IMG/VR virus record: IMGVR_UViG_2537562012_000007
Span: 1-40,599 of that record
From: a virus
Taxonomy: Duplodnaviria; Heunggongvirae; Uroviricota; Caudoviricetes
Strand: one strand, 5' to 3'
DNA: 40,599 bases
A model generated the notes under the pieces. It was not told the DNA's origin. It saw only the letters and a program-made list of their open reading frames with translations, and ran no database searches. Positions 1-40,211 of the stretch are shown here, piece by piece. Position 1 is the first letter of the stretch. Every line of letters starts with the position of its first letter. The position numbers were made by a program, and so were the translations under genes.

Positions 1-1119
1 TCAAATAACCAACTTAACCCATTCCTGACCTCGAGTATCGTTATAGCGATCGGTGGTTGCCTGGACTTTATGCCCTAGTAATGTTTTTGTATCGATACCC
101 TGTGCACGGTACAGCCGTTCTGATAGAGAGCGTTGTTCATGAAATGTTGGCGGAGTTTTTCCTGCTGGTGGAATTATCCCAGCCAGATCCCGTGCTTTGG
201 CAAAGTAGTCGCTCAGGTTGTCTTTACTCATCGGCTTCGGTTGTTTCTGGTGCCGACTATGGATTAGATATGGACTTAATATTCTGTCTCGGCACCCATC
301 AATAACTTCTTTTAACGTTATCCCAATGGCATCACAGCGTAGTGTAAGCGGTAACGCCAGACGCATTCCGGTTTTTCCCTGGGTGATATGCAAGTGTTCG
401 TTCCACACATCTGAAAAACGCATGTGGCAAATGTCATCACGGCGCTGACCAGTAACAATCGCAAGAAGCATTGCGTTACGGATAAAGTGTTTTTCAGGCG
501 TTGCATTGTAAATTTTTTGCCAGTCTTCCATGGTGAGCCTGGCTCTGGTTACTTTAGGGATCGGTTTACGGGTAGCCTCCGGAGGATTCCATCCAGGAGG
601 AACTTCCCCTGCATGCTGTGCTTCTTTATAAATATCAACCCATAATCCACGATTTACTCTCGCTGTGCTGACCATGTCTTTATCCAGCCACTCATCCAGT
701 ATTAATGCAAAGTCTCTTACTTCCAGTTCTTTCAATGGGTGGTTTCCCAGACGGGAAACCAAGTATGCAGCCATTCGAGTTTTTTCTTTGTGAGTTGTAG
801 CTGCAATATCTCCATTTTTCAGTCGCGTGTCCTGTATTTTCAGATATCGATCAACCCATGCCTTTAATCTGATACCCCGACGTTTTGTTGCTGACGGACT
901 TTCATCAATTTTGCGCATGAAATATTCAGCTTCTGCTGCAGCTATTCGCTGATTGGCTGTGGAAGCGATTTTTTCTGCCTTACCTTTGTCTGTTCCGAGT
1001 CCGTGAAATTTTCCAGTCACAGGATTTTTATACTGGTAGTAAACTCTGCCAGTTCTGCGATCAAACTTTTCGTAAAGACCGGCTACGTCAGTGCTGTTTT
1101 TTCGTGGCCTCGGTGACAT
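1..1119 (-). CDS. int: Tyrosine site-specific integrase
   Basis: 372 aa ORF with lambda-Int-like C-terminal catalytic region (TGQRRDD ... HEQRSLSERLY); overlaps the upstream xis-like gene as is typical. Confidence 0.9.
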   Translation of the reverse strand: MSPRPRKNSTDVAGLYEKFDRRTGRVYYQYKNPVTGKFHGLGTDKGKAEKIASTANQRIAAAEAEYFMRKIDESPSATKRRGIRLKAWVDRYLKIQDTRLKNGDIAATTHKEKTRMAAYLVSRLGNHPLKELEVRDFALILDEWLDKDMVSTARVNRGLWVDIYKEAQHAGEVPPGWNPPEATRKPIPKVTRARLTMEDWQKIYNATPEKHFIRNAMLLAIVTGQRRDDICHMRFSDVWNEHLHITQGKTGMRLALPLTLRCDAIGITLKEVIDGCRDRILSPYLIHSRHQKQPKPMSKDNLSDYFAKARDLAGIIPPAGKTPPTFHEQRSLSERLYRAQGIDTKTLLGHKVQATTDRYNDTRGQEWVKLVI

Positions 1120-8915: not shown

Positions 8916-9371
8916 GTGGCAAAAGTTTTTACACAAGAAGAGCGGGAAAAAATTAAAGGGCAGGTTGTTGAACTCGTACGCCAGAGTGGGCGCGAGACGT
9001 TACGACAACTGGAAACTAAAACTGGGGCAACAAGATATCTGATGAGCGTTCTGGCCAGAGAGCTGGTTGCCAGTGGCGATGTATACAACTCTGGTTACGG
9101 GTTATTCCCGTCTGAACAGGCGCGTAAGGACTGGCAAAATGCCCGTAAAAAGCTCTCAAGGGCAAAGCTGAAGAAACCATCTGCGGTTGATCCGGACCTT
9201 ATCTGGTCATTACCTGACGGAGAAATACGTCGCTACGACAGGCGTCAGAACATAATCTGTCGCGAGTGCCGGAAGAGTGAAGCTATGCAGCGTGTACTGG
9301 CATTTTACCAGAATGGTTTTCGAGAGACATTCGGTGAACAGGTTGTGCATGAGGGAAATCATGGCGCTTAG
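8916..9371 (+). CDS. Hypothetical protein (151 aa), replication module
   Basis: GTG start with AGGAGG 5 nt upstream; no recognisable domain. Confidence 0.5.
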   Translation: MAKVFTQEEREKIKGQVVELVRQSGRETLRQLETKTGATRYLMSVLARELVASGDVYNSGYGLFPSEQARKDWQNARKKLSRAKLKKPSAVDPDLIWSLPDGEIRRYDRRQNIICRECRKSEAMQRVLAFYQNGFRETFGEQVVHEGNHGA

Positions 9372-9858: not shown

Positions 9859-10905
9859 ATGACTAGTGAATCAAATGTTAATGCTCTGATAGAGCGTCAA
9901 TTCGAAGTTGCTGACGGTAATGTAAGAAGTCTTAATTTGCCGAAATATGATAAATATACAGTATGTAATTTACGGGGAGGCATTGGTAAGACATCTTTAA
10001 CTTTTAATCTGTCATATTTGGCGGATAACGCATTAATCGTGGATACGTGCCCGCAAGGAAATTTATCATATTTTTTTGACAATAATTATGCATCTTCGTC
10101 TAGCACAACTGCAAATGACCTCTTAATGCCTTATTTTGTTCCAGGGCTTGGATTTGCAACGCGTGCTGCAAAGCTAGTATCATCAACTAATGCTTGGTTT
10201 GCGGGCAAGAATAACTATTTTATTCAATCTGATAGTCAACTTTATCTTCTACCTACGCAAATGGCGAATGCTCTGGCTCAAGCCAGAACAATTTCTGGGG
10301 CTACTCAGCAGGTTGTTATTGATACAATTCTTTTTTCTCTGAAGAAAGAAATAGCCAGAGAAATGGTTGAAACTGGTACTACAAAAGCGTTAATTGATAC
10401 ATCACCTTTTTTCTCTGGAGCGACGCATTTATCTTGGCATGCAACAGATGCTTTAATAGTTCCAGTGAGGACAGATCAGCAATCGATTAATTCATTAAGA
10501 TTACTTATTGATACTCTGACTAAACCAACATCAGAATTTAGAAAGATAATGCCGTCTGATGGCCATACACCAAAAATTCAGATGGTGGTTATTACCCATT
10601 GCGGATGGTCAACAGTGGCAGGAGCAAGGAATAAACCAAATCAACAGACAAAAATGTACATCGAAGCTGTAAGAGAGGTAATTCGACAAAATATTAGTAA
10701 TTTTACAACAGATGATCCTAATAATCACATTGTGATTCTTGATGATTTTCTGGGTAGTGGCAGAATGTCAAGTGCTAAGTCTAAACCATTAGAGTTGTTA
10801 AATCCAGGAGATGCAATGACTGTGAATAGAGTTAGGACATCCGTGAATTTATCTGTTAACAAAATAAAAAATGAATTAAAGTTCATTCACAACTCCATAT
10901 GGTAA
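9859..10905 (+). CDS. ParA/MinD-family P-loop ATPase with C-terminal extension
   Basis: Deviant Walker A CNLRGGIGKTSLT followed by DTCPQGN, as in ParA/Soj; 348 aa; markedly AT-rich codon usage by eye relative to the phage backbone. Confidence 0.75.
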   Translation: MTSESNVNALIERQFEVADGNVRSLNLPKYDKYTVCNLRGGIGKTSLTFNLSYLADNALIVDTCPQGNLSYFFDNNYASSSSTTANDLLMPYFVPGLGFATRAAKLVSSTNAWFAGKNNYFIQSDSQLYLLPTQMANALAQARTISGATQQVVIDTILFSLKKEIAREMVETGTTKALIDTSPFFSGATHLSWHATDALIVPVRTDQQSINSLRLLIDTLTKPTSEFRKIMPSDGHTPKIQMVVITHCGWSTVAGARNKPNQQTKMYIEAVREVIRQNISNFTTDDPNNHIVILDDFLGSGRMSSAKSKPLELLNPGDAMTVNRVRTSVNLSVNKIKNELKFIHNSIW

Positions 10906-29857: not shown

Positions 29858-30598
29858 ATGACGACACCGAATCCACTTGAAAAAATGAAAGGGGCGGGGA
29901 CGACGTTCTGGATGTATACCGGCAAGGGCGACGCATTTGCGAATCCTTTGTCAGATACGGACTGGCTGCGCCTCGCGATGGTGAAGGATCTGCAGCCGGG
30001 GGAAATGACTGCAGATGCGGAAGATGACGATTATCTCGATGATGAAAATGCTGACTGGAAAACGACAACTCAGGGGCAAAAATCTGTTGGTGATACATCC
30101 GCGACGCTGGCCTGGCGTCCGGGTGACAGCGGACAGAAAAAACTGATTCAGTTGTTTGATTCCGGTGAAGTTCGTGCATTCCGCATTAAATACCCTAACG
30201 GTACCGTTGATGTGTTCCGCGGCTGGCTGAGTTCGCTGGGTAAAACCATTACGTCAAAAGATGTGATGACCCGTACGGTTAAAATCAGCGGTGTGGGGCG
30301 TCCGTATCTGGCTGAGGAGGGGACTGAAATTGTGGGGGTGACCGGGCTGACAGTAATGCCGGTTTCCGCCAGTGTCAGAGTGGGGGCAACGACGACGCTG
30401 ACATTCAGCACAGTACCGGAAGATGCTTCTGATAAAACGGTGAGTGTGGCGTCATCATCTCCTGATATCGCCACGGTTACGCTGAGTGGCATGGTGGCCA
30501 CGGTGAAAGGTGTGAAAGCGGGCAGCACCTCGATTGTGGGGATGACTGCGGGTGGTGCGCAGGTTGCTGTGGCCGGTATTACCGTTAATGGTGATTAA
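29858..30598 (+). CDS. Major tail protein V with C-terminal Ig-like domain
   Basis: MKGAGTTFWMYTGKGDAFANPLSD ... FRGWLSSLGKT matches lambda V; the C-terminus is Big2-like. Confidence 0.9.
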   Translation: MTTPNPLEKMKGAGTTFWMYTGKGDAFANPLSDTDWLRLAMVKDLQPGEMTADAEDDDYLDDENADWKTTTQGQKSVGDTSATLAWRPGDSGQKKLIQLFDSGEVRAFRIKYPNGTVDVFRGWLSSLGKTITSKDVMTRTVKISGVGRPYLAEEGTEIVGVTGLTVMPVSASVRVGATTTLTFSTVPEDASDKTVSVASSSPDIATVTLSGMVATVKGVKAGSTSIVGMTAGGAQVAVAGITVNGD

Positions 30599-30616
30599 CC
30601 TGGCAGTCTGTTTTTT

Positions 30617-30640
30617 ACCCCGGTATGCCGGGGTTTTTTG
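30617..30640 (+). terminator. Rho-independent terminator after V
   Basis: CCCCGG-TATG-CCGGGG followed by TTTTTTG. Confidence 0.65.
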
Positions 30641-30654
30641 TTTACGGAGGGGAC

Positions 30655-31044
30655 ATGTTTCTGAAACAGGACACATTTAACTACGGTAATCAGTCTGTGG
30701 TACTGACGGAATTATCCGGACTTCAGCGGGTGGAGTATCTGGCGTTTGTCCAGAAACGGACAGCTGAGTTTGACGCCCTGGATGATGCCATGCCAGTGGC
30801 GGATCGTCAGATTGAATTTCTGCGTATGGGGATGGATATCAATGCCTGGCTGGTTTCCCGGTCAATGTGGAATACGGACCCGTCACAGGATGTGGATGCG
30901 CTGAATGAGGATGTAAAAAACACCTGGTCTTATGACGCGCTTGGCGACGGGGGCAGTCTGGTTTTATCCCTGAGTGGTATGCCGGTCTCCACCGGTGATG
31001 TTCAGAACGGTGAACAGGTTCCCCTGACACCGGAAAAGTCCTGA
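30655..31044 (+). CDS. Tail assembly chaperone G
   Basis: MFLKQDTFNYGNQSVVLTELSGLQRVEYLAF resembles lambda G; GGAGGGG RBS. Confidence 0.85.
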   Translation: MFLKQDTFNYGNQSVVLTELSGLQRVEYLAFVQKRTAEFDALDDAMPVADRQIEFLRMGMDINAWLVSRSMWNTDPSQDVDALNEDVKNTWSYDALGDGGSLVLSLSGMPVSTGDVQNGEQVPLTPEKS

Positions 31045-31367
31045 CGCGGGAGATGCAGTTTGTGATGCAGCTTGCCCGTGAGTTCCGGCGGGCAGACTGG
31101 CGGCGGATGTTATCAGAAATGTCAGCGTCAGAACTGGGCGAATGGGGGGATTTCTTCCGGAAGCAGAGTTTCGGGGATATCTGGCTGGATGCACAGATTT
31201 CCACACTGAAGTCGCTGATGGTTCAGATGGTGTCCGGTGAACGTATTCCGGCGGATGATTTCAGTCTGGTTACGGATGACAGGGTGATCCCTGAACGCAC
31301 GGATGAAGAGCTGATGCATCTGGGGGAAGGTATATCGGGAGGAATGAGATTTGGACCAGATTGCTGA
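31014..31367 (+). CDS. T-frame portion of the G-T tail assembly fusion (made by -1 frameshift from G)
   Basis: The -1 frame is open from 31014 and overlaps the G 3' end; candidate slippery heptamer G GAA AAG at 31032-31038, at the position of lambda's G GGA AAG. Confidence 0.6.
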   Translation, partial: TGSPDTGKVLTREMQFVMQLAREFRRADWRRMLSEMSASELGEWGDFFRKQSFGDIWLDAQISTLKSLMVQMVSGERIPADDFSLVTDDRVIPERTDEELMHLGEGISGGMRFGPDC

Positions 31368-34300
31368 CCTTGTCATTGATTTAAGCATTGATACCGCCGA
31401 TTTTAAAGAGCAGCTTCCGCGTGTAAAAAATCTGCTGAATGGTACAGCAAGGGAGGCGGAGCGGGCCGAAGCCCGTATGAAACGGTTTGAGGAAAGTCAG
31501 AAACAGGCTGCCAGCGCGACGGTGATACAGACTCAGGCCGTGGTGAAGCATGCGCAGGGGCATGTTTCGCTGGCGGAAGATGTGGAAAGGGCGCGCCTGC
31601 GGATGGAGGCCCTGAGTCGTCAGATGCGGGAGGAGCAGGTTCAGGCGGCTGCGCTGGCTGCGGCGCAGGATAAGATGGCAGCCGCATTTTATCGTCAGAT
31701 CGACAGCGTAAAACAGGCCAGTGCGGGGCTGCAGGAGTTACAGCGTATTCAGCAGCAGATCCGACAGGCCAGAAACAGTGGCGGGATTGCTCAGCAGGAT
31801 TATCTGGCCCTGATTTCTGAGGTGACAGCGAAAACCCGCGTTCTGACACAGGCAGAGGAAACGGCCACCCGCCAGAAAACCGCATTTATTCGTCAGCTGA
31901 AAGAACAGACAAGTCGCCAGAAAATGACCACGACGGAACTGCTTCGGGCAAAGGCGGCACAACTTGGGTGCAGCAGTGCCGCGGAGGTGTACATCCGTAA
32001 AATGGAGAAAGCTGGAAACACCACACATTCGCTGGAACTGAAAAGTGCGGCAGCCCGTCGGGAGCTGGGGGTCATGATTGGTGAACTGGCGCGTGGTAAT
32101 TTCGGTGCGCTTCGTGGCTCCGGGATCACCCTGGCTAACCGTGCCGGCTGGATTGATAAATTAATGACTCCGAAAGGCCTGGCGGTGGGGGGAGTTATCG
32201 GAGGGATCACTGCTGCGGTTATTGGTCTGGGTAAAGCCTGGATGGAGGGGCGGGAAGAAGGCGAAGCCTTTAACCGGCAGCTTGAGCTCACCGGACACTA
32301 TGCCGGTGTGACAGCCGGGCAGTTGTGGGCGCTCAGTAAAAATCTTTCCGGTAATGGCATCACGCAACATGCCATGGCGGGGTCACTGGCGCAGGTAGTG
32401 GGGAGCGGTGCATTTCACGGTAACGATATTGGTATGGTGGCGAAAGCTGCCGCACAGATGGAACGCTCGGTAGGGCAGTCTGTCAGTGACACCATCAGTC
32501 AGTTTAAACGGCTGAAGGATGATCCGGTCAGTGCTGCGAAGGCGCTGGATGATGAACTGCATTTTCTGACAGCCACCCAGCTTGAACAGATCCGTGTGCT
32601 CGGAGAGCAGGGGCGCACCAGTGACGCCGCCCGGATAGCCATGTCTGCACTGGCAGAGGAAACCGGTAAACGTACGTCGGATATTGATAATAACCTCAAT
32701 GCGCTGGGCAGTACGCTGCAAACCTTGTCTGACTGGTGGAAGCAGTTCTGGGATGCGGCCATGAACATTGGTCGGGAAGATTCCCTTGATGCGCAGATTG
32801 CGTCGCTGCAGGAAAAAATTCAGCGGGCGAAGAAATTTCCGTGGACTAAGGTGTCCACCACGGGGGAATACGATCAGCAACAACTGGATGCGCTGCAAGA
32901 GCGAAAACGCCAGCAGGATTTGCAGGATGCAAAAGAGCAGGCTGAGCGAAATTATCAGGAGCAGCAGAAACGCCGGAATGCTGAAAATGCCGCGCTGAAC
33001 CGGATGAACGAAACGGAAGCAGCACGACATCAGCGTGAAATTGCGCGTATTAATGCCATGCAGTACGCCGATCAGGCGGTCAGGGACGCAGCGATACAGC
33101 GTGAAAATGAACGTTACGAAAAAGCCATTAAGAAAAAAACGCCTGCCACCCGTAATGATGAGGCCACCCGGTTATTGCTGCAGTACAGTCAGCTACAGGC
33201 ACAGGTGGAAGGACAGATTGCTGCTGCCAGACAGTCAGCAGGCATTGCCACGGAAAGGATGACAGAAGCGCATAAACAGCTTCTGGCTCTGCAGCAGCGC
33301 ATCAGCGACCTGGACGGGAAAAAACTGACGGCAGATGAAAAGAGTGTGCTGGATCACAAGGATGAGCTGATTCAGGCACTGACGCTGCTGGATGCAAAAC
33401 AGCAGGAGCTGCAGAAGCAGACGGCGCTGAATGATTTGAAGAAAAAATCCATTCAGCTTTCCAGCCAGCTGGCGGAAGAGGAGCGGGCTCTGCGTCAGCA
33501 ACATGACCTGGATATCGCCACGACAGGGATGGGGGATAAACAGCGTCAGCGATACCAGGCACAGTTCAGTCTGCAACAAAAATATCAGCAGCAGCGGGAA
33601 CAGCTGGAGCGTGACAGTAAGCAGAAAGGAACATATGGCACAGATGAATACCAGAATGCTGAGCAGATGCTGACAGACAGTCTTAACCGGCAACTGAACG
33701 AAAACAGACGTTACTGGCAGGAGCAGGAACTGATGCAGGCAGACTGGAAAAACGGTGCCATGCGGGCGTTTCAGAATTTTACAGAGAGTGCGGATAACGC
33801 GGCAGGTACCGCTGAGCAGATGTTTACAGCGGCATTTAACAGCGCAGGTAATGCACTGGCGACGTTCTGTACCACCGGAAAACTGAACTTCAAATCTTTT
33901 ACCGCCTCGCTCCTTTCTGATCTGGCAAAAATCATGTCGCAGATGGCCATGATGCAGGCAGTTAAGGGGATTGGTTCGGCGTTTGGCTGGGGGAGTGCAG
34001 CAACTGCCAGTGTGACGCCCAATGCTGATGGTGGTGTTTATCAGTCTGCTGATTTGAGTCGCTACAGTGGCACGGTGGTTAACCGTCCGACGTTTTTTGC
34101 TTTTGCAAAAGGCGCGGGTGTGATGGGAGAAGCGGGGCCTGAAGCCATTCTGCCATTGCGTCGTGGTGCTGATGGCAAGCTGGGTGTTGTGGCGGATATT
34201 GGTGGTTCAGGTATGGTGATGTTTGCCCCGCAGTACAACATCGAGATCAATAACGATGGTACGAACGGGCAGATAGGTCCGGCTGCCCTGAAGGTGGTTT

Positions 34301-34383
34301 ATGACCTCGGGAAAAAAGCAGCAGCGGACTTTATGCAACAGCAGTCCCGTGATGGTGGTCAGTTAAGCGGAGCATATCGGTAA
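31351..34383 (+). CDS. Tail tape measure protein H
   Basis: 1010 aa; N-terminus DLVIDLSIDTADF and C-terminus INNDGTNGQIGPAALKVVYD match lambda H; TTG start with GGAGG 9 nt upstream. Confidence 0.9.
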   Translation: MDQIADLVIDLSIDTADFKEQLPRVKNLLNGTAREAERAEARMKRFEESQKQAASATVIQTQAVVKHAQGHVSLAEDVERARLRMEALSRQMREEQVQAAALAAAQDKMAAAFYRQIDSVKQASAGLQELQRIQQQIRQARNSGGIAQQDYLALISEVTAKTRVLTQAEETATRQKTAFIRQLKEQTSRQKMTTTELLRAKAAQLGCSSAAEVYIRKMEKAGNTTHSLELKSAAARRELGVMIGELARGNFGALRGSGITLANRAGWIDKLMTPKGLAVGGVIGGITAAVIGLGKAWMEGREEGEAFNRQLELTGHYAGVTAGQLWALSKNLSGNGITQHAMAGSLAQVVGSGAFHGNDIGMVAKAAAQMERSVGQSVSDTISQFKRLKDDPVSAAKALDDELHFLTATQLEQIRVLGEQGRTSDAARIAMSALAEETGKRTSDIDNNLNALGSTLQTLSDWWKQFWDAAMNIGREDSLDAQIASLQEKIQRAKKFPWTKVSTTGEYDQQQLDALQERKRQQDLQDAKEQAERNYQEQQKRRNAENAALNRMNETEAARHQREIARINAMQYADQAVRDAAIQRENERYEKAIKKKTPATRNDEATRLLLQYSQLQAQVEGQIAAARQSAGIATERMTEAHKQLLALQQRISDLDGKKLTADEKSVLDHKDELIQALTLLDAKQQELQKQTALNDLKKKSIQLSSQLAEEERALRQQHDLDIATTGMGDKQRQRYQAQFSLQQKYQQQREQLERDSKQKGTYGTDEYQNAEQMLTDSLNRQLNENRRYWQEQELMQADWKNGAMRAFQNFTESADNAAGTAEQMFTAAFNSAGNALATFCTTGKLNFKSFTASLLSDLAKIMSQMAMMQAVKGIGSAFGWGSAATASVTPNADGGVYQSADLSRYSGTVVNRPTFFAFAKGAGVMGEAGPEAILPLRRGADGKLGVVADIGGSGMVMFAPQYNIEINNDGTNGQIGPAALKVVYDLGKKAAADFMQQQSRDGGQLSGAYR

Positions 34384-36757: not shown

Positions 36758-39700
36758 ATGGGTAAAGGCAGCAGTAAGGGGCATACCCCGCGCGAAGCGA
36801 AGGACAACCTGAAGTCCACGCAGTTGCTGAGTGTGATCGATGCCATCAGCGAAGGGCCGATTGAAGGTCCGGTGGATGGATTAAAAAGCGTGCTGCTGAA
36901 CAGTACGCCGGTGCTGGACAGTGAGGGGAATACCAATATATCCGGCGTCACGGTGGTGTTCCGGGCAGGTGAGCAGGAGCAGACACCGCCGGAGGGATTT
37001 GAATCCTCCGGCTCCGAGACGGTGCTGGGTACGGAAGTGAAATATGACACGCCGATCACCCGGACCATCACGTCGGCAAACATTGACCGTCTGCGTTTTA
37101 CTTTCGGCGTGCAGGCACTGGTGGAAACCACCTCAAAGGGGGACAGGAATCCATCGGAAGTCCGCCTGCTGGTTCAGATACAACGTAACGGTGGCTGGGT
37201 GACGGAAAAAGACATCACCATTAAGGGCAAAACCACCTCACAGTATCTGGCCTCGGTGGTGGTGGATAACCTGCCGCCGCGCCCGTTTAATATCCGGATG
37301 CGCAGGATGACGCCGGACAGCACCACAGACCAGCTGCAGAACAAAACGCTCTGGTCGTCATACACCGAAATTATCGATGTGAAACAGTGCTACCCGAACA
37401 CGGCACTGGTCGGCGTGCAGGTGGACTCGGAGCAGTTCGGCAGCCAGCAGGTGAGCCGTAATTATCATCTGCGCGGGCGTATTCTGCAGGTGCCGTCGAA
37501 TTATAACCCGCAGACGCGGCAATACAGCGGTATCTGGGACGGAACGTTTAAACCGGCATACAGCAACAACATGGCCTGGTGTCTGTGGGATATGCTGACC
37601 CATCCGCGCTACGGCATGGGGAAACGTCTTGGTGCGGATGTGGAAAATGGCGCTGTATATCGGCCAGTACTGCGACCAGTGTCCGAGGTTTGGCGGCACG
37701 GAGCCGCGCATCACCTGTAATGCTCTGACCACACAGCGAAGGCGTGGGATGTCTCAGTGATTTCTGCTCGCGATGCGCTGTATGCCGGTATGGAACGGGC
37801 AGACGCTGACGTTCGTGCAGGACCGACCTCGATAAGGTTGGACCTATAACCGCAGTAATGTGGTGATGCCGGATGATGGGCGCCGTTCCGCTACAGCTTC
37901 AGCGCCCTGAAGGACCGCCATAATGCCGTTGAGGTGAACTGGATTGACCCGAAAACGGCTGGGAGACGGCACAGAGCTTGTGAGAACGCAGGCCATTGCC
38001 CGTTACGGTCGTAAGTCACGAAGATGGATGCTTTGGCTGTACCAGCCGGGGGCAGGCACACCGCGCCGGGCTGTGGCTGATTAAAACAGAACTGCTGGAA
38101 ACGCAGACCGTGGACTTCAGCGTGGGTGCTGAAGGGCTTCGCCATGTACCGGGCGATGTCATTGAAATCTGCGATGATGACTATGCCGGTATCGCACCGG
38201 CGGGCGCGTGCTGGCGGTAACACCAGACCCGGACGCTGACGCTCGACCGTGAAATCACGCTGCCATCTCCGGACCACGCTGATAAGCCTGGTTGACGGGC
38301 AGGGGAGTCCGGTAGCGTGGAGGTCAGTCCGTCACCGACGGCGTGAAGGTGAAAGTGAGCCGTGTTCCTGACGGCGTTGCTGAATACAGCGTTGGGGGCT
38401 GAAGCTGCCGACGTGCGCCAGCGCCTGTTCCGCTGCGTGAGTATCCGTGAGAACGAGACGGCACGTATGCCATCACCGCCGTGCAGCATGTCCGGAAAAG
38501 AGGCCATCGTGGATAACGGGGCGCACTTTGACGGCGACCAGAGCGGCACGGTAATGGTGTCACGCCGCCAGCGGTGCAGCACCTGACCGCAGAAGTCACC
38601 GCAGACAGCGGGGAGTATCAGGTGCTGGCGCGCTGGGACACGCCGAAGGTGGTGAAGGGCGTGAGCTTCCTGCTTCGCCTGACCGTGGCAGCGGATGACG
38701 GCCGTGAGCGGCTGGTCAGCACGGCCCGGACGACGGAAACCACTTACCGCTTCACACAACTGGCTCTGGGGAACTACAGGCTGACAGTCCGGGCAGTAAA
38801 TGCGTGGGGGCAGCAGGGCGATCCGGCGTCGGTATCGTTCCGGATTGCCGCACCGGCAGCGCCGTCGCGGATTGAGCTGACGCCGGGCTATTTTCAGATA
38901 ACCGCCACGCCGCATCTTGCGGTTTATGACCCGACGGTACAGTTTGAGTTCTGGTTCTCGGAAAAACGGATTGCGGATATCAGGCAGGTTGAAACCAGCG
39001 CGCGTTATCTTGGTACGGCACTGTACTGGATAGCCGCCAGTATCAATATCAAACCGGGCCATGATTATTATTTTTACGTTCGCAGTGTGAACACCGTTGG
39101 CAAATCGGCATTCGTGGAGGCTGTCGATCAGCCGAGTGATGATGCATCAGGCTATCTGGATTTTTTCAAAGGCGAGATAGGGAAAACCCATCTGGCTCAG
39201 GAGCTGTGGACGCAGATTGATAACGGTCAGCTTGCGCCTGACCTGACTGAAATCAGGACGTCCATAACGGATGTCAGCAATGAAATAACACAGACCGTCA
39301 ATAAGAAACTGGAAGACCAGAGTGCAGCGATCCAGCAGATACAGAAGGTTCAGGTTGATACAAATAATAACCTGAACAGCATGTGGGCAGTGAAGCTGCA
39401 GCAGATGCAGGACGGACGCCTTTATATTGCGGGTATCGGTGCCGGTATTGAGAACACCCCTGACGGCATGCAGAGTCAGGTGCTGCTGGCAGCAGACAGG
39501 ATTGCGATGATTAATCCTGCGAATGGCAACACAAAGCCGATGTTTGTTGGTCAGGGCGATCAGATATTCATGAATGAAGTGTTCCTGAAACGCCTGACGG
39601 CCCCCACCATTACCAGCGGCGGTAATCCTCCGGCATTTTCCCTGACATCAGACGGGAGACTGACGGCGAAAAATGCGGATATCAGTGGCAGTGTGAATGC

Positions 39701-40211
39701 GAACTCAGGAACGCTCAACAATGTCACGATTAACCAGAACTGTACGATTAAGGGCATGCTGGAGGCGACCCAGGTCAGAGGAGATTTCGTTAAAGCTGTA
39801 TCAAAAGCCTTCCCGAAAAAAGTCGGTACGTGGGGTAACACGGAAACACCAAACGGTACGGTTACAGTCACCATCAGCGATGATCATAACTTTGACCGCC
39901 AGATTATTATTCCGCCCATTATTTTTAACGGTATAGCGTATGACGATCCGGGGAGCGGAAATAACCCAGGAGGCACGCGATACACGGGTTATGGTTTTGA
40001 AGTTCGCAAAAACGGCGTATTAATCGCATCCAGAGAAACTAAAGGGGCCATTCCCGGTAGTTACAGTGCAGTTATTGATATGCCGAGTGGCAGGGGAAGC
40101 GTCACTCTGGAGTTTAAGATTTTCCAGAAAGGCAATCAGGGGGCAGGCAATATCACCGACTGTACGGTGATTGTGACCAAAAAAGCCGCTTCCGGCATCA
40201 GTATTCGTTGA
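36758..40211 (+). pseudogene. Tail tip / host-specificity protein J, split by multiple frameshifts in its middle section
   Basis: ORFs 36758-37720, 37996-38220, 38362-38586 and 38574-40211 each match consecutive parts of lambda J as recalled; between about 37640 and 38600 the reading frame changes repeatedly. Confidence 0.75.

Follow-up and report, generated by a model that had tools for sequence, protein, structure and literature searches.

Programmed -1 frameshifting between the tail genes G and T has been described for phage lambda, in which roughly one GT fusion is made per 30 G and this ratio is crucial for tail assembly (PMC5009743). Further examples are found in phage records. In N15 (NC_001901), a misc_feature at 10027-10033, annotated as "slippery sequence for -1 translational frameshift", reads GGAAAAG, and in LLS (PQ299149) a misc_feature at 9222-9228 is annotated as "minus-one programmed translational frameshift site GGAAAAG" together with a joined CDS. 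GGAAAAG as a slippery sequence of the G-T gene pair is therefore already known. For Gifsy-2, a "G+G' frameshift hybrid protein" is annotated. A search of the phage collection, including tblastn, identified GGAAAAG in phages N15, phi80, Gifsy-2, mEp237, mEp460, Ayreon, Tritos, PhiR55_1, and LLS.

Related -1 frameshift sites are known from other genetic contexts. The NNA_AAG hexanucleotide sites are driven by the preference of tRNA-Lys for AAA (PMC5009743), and A_AAG alone, without a stimulator, reaches about 0.15% in vivo (PMC4066793). The dnaX gene of E. coli shifts with a frequency of about 80% in a reconstituted system, and a single codon-anticodon mismatch is tolerated in this context, as G_AAA_AAG keeps 28% compared to about 80% for the wild type (PMC6787027). 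Furthermore, re-pairing from GAA to GGA via a G.U pair was noted by PRFect for chaperone sites of actinophages (PMC10885494).

The window, i.e., the whole stretch of 40,599 nucleotides which was analyzed here, is a lambda-like prophage with an integrase gene (1-1119, minus strand) at one end. Its genes are arranged in the order Nu1, A, portal, C, D, E, FI, FII, Z, U, V, G, T, H, M, L, K, I, and J, of which the tail module Z-U-V-G-T-H-M-L-K-I-J shows the canonical order. G and T overlap each other and are set between V upstream and H downstream. The features of the locus are listed in Table 1.

Table 1. Features in and around the G-T locus; positions are those of the window.
Feature	Position	Strand	Basis
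Gene V, major tail tube protein with C-terminal Big_2	29858..30598	+	Phage_TTP_12 (E=9e-68), Big_2; coordinates taken from the RefSeq annotation of a 99.8% identical prophage
Gene G, tail assembly chaperone, 0-frame product, 129 aa	30655..31044	+	ORF, translation, Pfam
TGA in the -1 (T) frame, 5' boundary for the position of the shift	31011..31013	+	
G/T overlap, -1 frame open within G, 31 nt	31014..31044	+	
Slippery heptamer GGAAAAG in the phase G_GAA_AAG; P site, GAA (tRNA-Glu); A site, AAG (tRNA-Lys)	31032..31038	+	
T segment, -1 frame after the predicted slip, G31038 read twice	31038..31367	+	Fusion translation, Pfam
ATG annotated as start of a stand-alone T ORF, probably no real start	31053..31055	+	PGAP
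Gene H, tape measure protein, overlaps the end of T	31351..34383	+	Pfam TMP_2, Tape_meas_lam_C, TMP_4

Gene G starts with the ATG at 30655 and ends with the TGA at 31042-31044. Its product matches PF06894 (Phage_TAC_2) over residues 1-119 with E=1.5e-37 in a Pfam search, and an identical gene is labeled gpG in E. coli R1 (RefSeq). The 3' end of the G frame reads GAA CAG GTT CCC CTG ACA CCG GAA AAG TCC TGA. The overlap comprises nine sense codons and the stop codon of G, and the T frame continues to its own stop at 31365-31367. A -1 slip after decoding of AAG is predicted to give a GT fusion of 237 aa with the junction ...VPLTPEK-VLTREMQFVMQLAREF..., in which PF06223 (Phage_tail_T) was found at residues 157-231 (E=5e-13, Pfam search). 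An earlier sequence-only reading of the locus had reported the -1 frame to be open from 31014, which can be read directly, and had assigned the locus to the lambda type, which agrees with the Pfam matches of G and T and with the place of the pair between V and H.

Two observations were made elsewhere in the tail module. The V-G intergenic region contains a terminator-like hairpin (30617-30644, ACCCCGG-TATG-CCGGGGT) followed by TTTTTTG, and a putative rho-independent terminator is annotated at the same place in the records of mEp460 and N15. This hairpin may lower the transcription of G-T-H relative to V. Gene J (36758-40208) is interrupted, with its N-terminal part in one ORF (36758-37717) and its C-terminal part in another (38532-40208). 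Compared to an intact gpJ of 98.4% identity, it carries about 38 scattered deletions of 1-3 nt, all of them within a 900-bp patch (37636-38553), which looks like a low-quality or misassembled stretch or possibly like a decayed pseudogene.

The heptamer G_GAA_AAG is located where lambda has G_GGA_AAG. This had been proposed from the letters of the window and was confirmed by a protein alignment with lambda GT, in which ...TPEK|VLTREMQF of the window corresponds to ...SAGK|VFDGELSF of lambda. Since both the Lys and the Val after it are unchanged in the alignment, the two heptamers are positionally homologous. The re-pairing which had been proposed for the slip is right by inspection, since tRNA-Lys stays paired when moving from AAG to AAA, and tRNA-Glu (anticodon 3'-CUU-5') would have a G.U pair in the middle of the codon when moving from GAA to GGA. 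The importance of the G to GT ratio for tail assembly, which the same reading had given as established, is in line with the literature (PMC5009743).

G_GAA_AAG does not follow the canonical pattern X_XXY_YYZ, in which positions 1-3 as well as positions 4-6 are identical, as it has an A at position 3. It fits the pattern XXYYYYZ, the "twofour" class of PRFect (PMC10885494). The sequence-only reading had also considered an alternative slippery site upstream. Within the 31-nt overlap no such site exists, and no other in-phase motif of the type Z_ZZN or similar to X_XXY_YYZ was found there. G_GAA_AAG is the only plausible slip site at the G-T locus of the window. With 7 matches in the window and 6.45 expected, the bare sequence GGAAAAG shows no enrichment, and it is only through phase, position, and conservation in relatives that the heptamer becomes significant. 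The parts of a lambda-type G/GT frameshift which can be read from sequence were found in the window, i.e., the gene position, a homolog of gpG, a homolog of gpT in the -1 frame, and a slippery site, and sequence comparison supports a retained programmed -1 frameshift between G and T.

In public records of the clade to which the window belongs, T is given as a stand-alone ORF from the ATG at 31053 and a frameshift is not annotated. The corresponding protein of 104 aa starts at this internal ATG (RefSeq WP_001161001.1, window 31053-31367). In a collection of about 15 billion proteins, the GT fusion of 237 aa does not occur, whereas the exact G was found on at least 1000 contigs and the exact T on 984. 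If T were made independently from this ATG, as RefSeq/PGAP and several phage records have it, a frameshift would not be needed. A GGGAG sequence just 5' of the ATG fits such a start, but it touches the ATG with zero spacing. Moreover, the Met is missing in many relatives in which the T frame is open through the heptamer, e.g., in those reading GKALTRELAF or GKVLAGELNF. Since the Met is not conserved and GGGAG lacks a spacer, the ATG is probably not a real start. An independent start would also not require a conserved heptamer, its phase, or the G at its first position, and the curated records of N15, LLS, and Gifsy-2 annotate the frameshift. An independently made T is thus considered very unlikely.

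Prophages in 16 complete E. coli genomes, most of which come from cattle, align gap-free with the G-T region of the window at 99.5-99.8% identity, and two further genomes match this region at 96.4%. About 1,830 more chromosome records match at 60-80%, and at any level matches were found in 1,843 of 5,426 complete genomes. Compared to mEp460, cdtI, Ayreon, Tritos, and similar phages, the nucleotide identity is about 75%. The sequence CCGGAAAAGTCCTGA is present in all relatives which were read at the G-T junction, and GGAAAAG is kept in IMG/VR loci ranging from 57% to 100% protein identity. A sequencing error as the origin of the change from GGA to GAA was rejected, since the same sequence is found in many independent genomes. 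Transcriptional slippage was regarded as implausible on general knowledge, as the run of A is only 4 nt long.

To cover the family more broadly, a collection with one genome per species was scanned by means of an alignment which included lambda, and 69 loci were returned. G_GAA_AAG was found at the homologous junction in prophages of about 20 genera of Enterobacterales, among them Citrobacter, Kosakonia, Leclercia, Atlantibacter, Kluyvera, Enterobacter, Pseudocitrobacter, Providencia, Sodalis, Trabulsiella, Phytobacter, and Pluralibacter. In this survey, G_GGA_AAG occurs only in lambda, E. albertii, one other Escherichia species, and Edwardsiella. GGAAAAG is kept in 124 of 148 related loci. 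When all collected sites were clustered at 92% identity, 66 clusters were obtained, of which 51 have GGAAAAG, 5 have GGGAAAG, and 10 have other sequences. In a neighbor-joining tree of the GT proteins, GGAAAAG is scattered over the tree and the lambda type forms a derived clade and one deep branch. The sequence-only reading had presented the heptamer as a peculiarity of this phage, which does not hold, as the same heptamer is that of the family majority and is annotated in N15 and LLS. On this distribution, GGAAAAG is a variant only relative to lambda, whose own version is the one in the minority.

Lambda-identical G-T sequences were also detected on short low-coverage contigs assigned to unrelated organisms, such as Pseudomonas, Neobacillus, Oceanobacillus, Kitasatospora, Shewanella, Leeuwenhoekiella, and others. 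Most likely, these represent contamination of the assemblies with lambda DNA.

Pattern scans of IMG/VR returned both GGAAAAG and GGGAAAG in abundance, with at least 120 matches each. With the first three positions left free, A_AAA_AAG, G_AAA_AAG, C_GCA_AAG, one A_GAA_AAG, and one A_GGA_AAG were identified in addition. In loci from Ewingella, Kluyvera, and Providencia, the homologous junction reads G_GCA_AAA_UAG or G_GGA_AAA_UAG. AAA as the Lys codon occurs only together with P-site codons other than GAA and only directly before a UAG stop, which suggests that these lineages may use a P-site slip at a slow stop. Over all site variants the slip of Lys in the A site (A_AAG or A_AAA) is invariant, whereas the P-site codon varies between GGA, GAA, AAA, and GCA.

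The overlap of G and T ranges from 16 to 163 nt in the relatives and always includes the heptamer, across which the -1 frame is always open. The smallest permissible interval is 16 nt long, e.g., A TCA CTG GAA AAG TAG. Among the 52 clusters of the GAA_AAG class, the stop codon of G follows 0, 1, or 5 codons past AAG in 3, 26, and 23 clusters, respectively, and never further; the window has the form with one codon (UCC UGA).

A stretch of about 70 nt on the 3' side of the heptamer is nearly the same in the window (31039-31110) and in the mEp460 locus (1882-1953), with only about 5 differences, whereas the upstream C-terminal part of G and the more distant part of T are far more diverged between the window and the mEp460 clade. 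The low divergence could be due to a mosaic boundary or to a constraint on the N-terminus of T. An RNA structure which would explain the conservation of these 70 nt was not found.

The mode of the slip can be addressed by means of the first position of the heptamer. In the GAA_AAG class, in which the Glu codon is GAA by definition, as A_AAG requires, and the Lys codon is AAG in every site found, position 1 is a G in 51 of 52 clusters (entropy 0.14 bit), and the remaining cluster has A_GAA_AAG. This G is the last base of six codons (GCG, CCG, CTG, TTG, GTG, and ACG) for five amino acids. The third positions of the four codons before the site are freely variable in the same 52 clusters, with 1.45-1.96 bit. 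Re-pairing of tRNA-Glu to GGA needs a G at position 1 and a slip of tRNA-Lys alone does not, so that the retention of this G favors a tandem slip of both tRNAs. Judged from this pattern, all seven positions of the heptamer are under selection.

A slip of tRNA-Lys alone, by the mechanism of the A_AAG or NNA_AAG hexanucleotides, would lead to the same product with tRNA-Glu not re-pairing and position 1 being irrelevant. It would fit with A_AAG or A_AAA as the sole invariant over all P-site variants and with the one natural A_GAA_AAG cluster, and single-tRNA slippage on A_AAG is established in E. coli (PMC5009743, PMC4066793). However, it fails to predict the nearly invariant G behind codons for five different amino acids. 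The tRNA-Glu, with mnm5s2U34, is not known to belong to the wobble-prone tRNAs. It is a wobble-prone tRNA on the NNA codon that favors slippage on a hexamer (PMC5009743). Furthermore, the known hexamer sites need strong downstream stimulators, and none was found at the site of the window. The slip of tRNA-Lys alone is accordingly held to be unlikely, and the tandem slip of both tRNAs seems to be favored.

Stimulating elements were searched for on both sides of the heptamer. Neither the region from +1 to +72 nor the 161-nt context folds more stably than shuffled sequences do (z = -0.23, -1.0, and +0.30), and an RNAalifold analysis of 23 diverse sequences yielded no consensus pairs. One candidate, a hairpin in the window 6 nt past the heptamer (CGCGGG/CCCGUG), was rejected, as it is broken in the mEp460 clade and not conserved; hairpins in other lineages pair in different registers. 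Another candidate, an upstream Shine-Dalgarno-like stimulator, was rejected as well. A GAGG about 10 nt upstream is present in several lineages and absent in others, and 27% of the background positions form a duplex at least as good as the best Shine-Dalgarno-like one of the window (-5.8 kcal/mol). An Rfam scan of 30000-32000 gave nothing meaningful. Overall, no conserved stimulator of the GGAAAAG site was found, be it a Shine-Dalgarno-like element upstream or a structure downstream. The lambda site, too, is reportedly one at which no strong stimulator was found.

In the open-access papers that were searched, the only match for GGAAAAG as a phage slippery site was an in-vitro study using the heptamer as a control. 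There, AUG GAA AAG was the control with poor slippage for G GGA AAG and gave "mainly the 0-frame product" in a reconstituted E. coli system (PMC6924986). Because of this poor slippage in vitro and the lack of a detectable stimulator, the efficiency of GGAAAAG in vivo may be lower than that of the lambda site. On the other hand, phage isolates carry GGAAAAG, so that the site must deliver enough GT, if T is essential as in lambda. The poor slippage in vitro is thus in tension with the dependence of isolates such as N15, phi80, and mEp460 on this site. Either a low level of GT suffices, or the efficiency in vivo is above what the in-vitro result hints at.

The poor slippage in vitro, together with the many small deletions in J, could also be taken as a sign of decay, i.e., of a non-functional site in a defective prophage which no longer makes GT. 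The G-T region itself, however, aligns without gaps to 7 complete genomes at 99.8% identity, and the identical heptamer with its context is conserved at the nucleotide level in phage isolates and across genera. Decay of the site is therefore regarded as extremely improbable.

With rather high confidence, the best explanation as a whole is that a rare -1 slip on G_GAA_AAG would yield GT beside G. We infer from the arrangement of the locus that a small fraction of the ribosomes translating G would slip back by one nucleotide at the heptamer. In this step, tRNA-Lys would move from AAG to AAA and tRNA-Glu from GAA to GGA, with the G.U pair at the middle position being tolerated. Translation would then go on in the T frame to 31367, giving the 237-aa GT (...LTPEK-VLTREMQF...) beside the abundant 129-aa G. 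By analogy with lambda, the tape measure protein H would be chaperoned by G and GT together, which would also recruit the tail tube protein V.

A more far-reaching reading joins several of these points. G_GAA_AAG would be the ancestral and preferred G-T site of the enterobacterial lambda-like phages, with all seven nucleotides selected and a tandem slip in vivo, the efficiency of which would be either lambda-like or deliberately several-fold lower. Taken with all its parts, this reading is tentative and rather doubtful. If it is true with a lambda-like efficiency, it contradicts the use of the heptamer as a non-slippery in-vitro control; if it is true with a deliberately several-fold lower efficiency, a different optimal ratio of G to GT is implied.

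The G-T site of the window is of the N15 type, the commonest in the family, and thus an ordinary one, so that there is little to discover at the locus itself. Its significance lies rather in annotation and in its comparison with relatives. In a very common clade of E. coli prophages, automatic annotation gives T as a stand-alone ORF and misses GT, and frameshift finders which accept only X_XXY_YYZ will overlook the G-T site that is most common in the family. In addition, the members of the family form a natural series at a single homologous position, in which the P site holds GAA, GGA, AAA, or GCA and the A site holds AAG or AAA plus stop. This series could be used to calibrate the effect of P-site mismatches on -1 frameshifting and on the chaperone ratio.

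Among the known systems, dnaX of E. coli (A_AAA_AAG) shares the event in the A site with the window, and a few members of the G-T family carry A_AAA_AAG themselves. It differs by its upstream Shine-Dalgarno-like element and its downstream hairpin, neither of which is detectable in the window.

The NNA_AAG hexanucleotide sites, such as those of IS3, IS1222 (G_CGA_AAG), and cdd of B. subtilis (A_CGA_AAG), have the in-phase A_AAG in common with the window. They rely on a pseudoknot, a hairpin, or a Shine-Dalgarno stimulator and have a wobble-prone tRNA at the NNA codon, whereas the site of the window lacks a detectable strong cis stimulator and its 5' base is not free, position 1 being under selection.

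Lambda shares with the window homologous G and T domains, the gene order V-G-T-H, a shift site at the same aligned codon, and the re-pairing from AAG to AAA in the A site. The P-site codon is GGA (Gly) in lambda and GAA (Glu) in the window, for which reason re-pairing needs a G.U pair at the middle position in the window and a third-position wobble in lambda. The 0-frame stop is located 5 codons after the site in lambda, but only one codon after it in the window.

Finally, GGAAAAG is annotated as the slippery sequence in genes 14/15 of N15 and genes 11/12 of LLS. Their T segments are only 39-41% identical to that of the window, and the site is preceded by GCG or GUG and followed by CCC, compared to CCG and UCC in the window. 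Nevertheless, heptamer, phase, and position in these homologous G-T pairs are identical to those of the window, which has the N15-type GGAAAAG site at 31032-31038.
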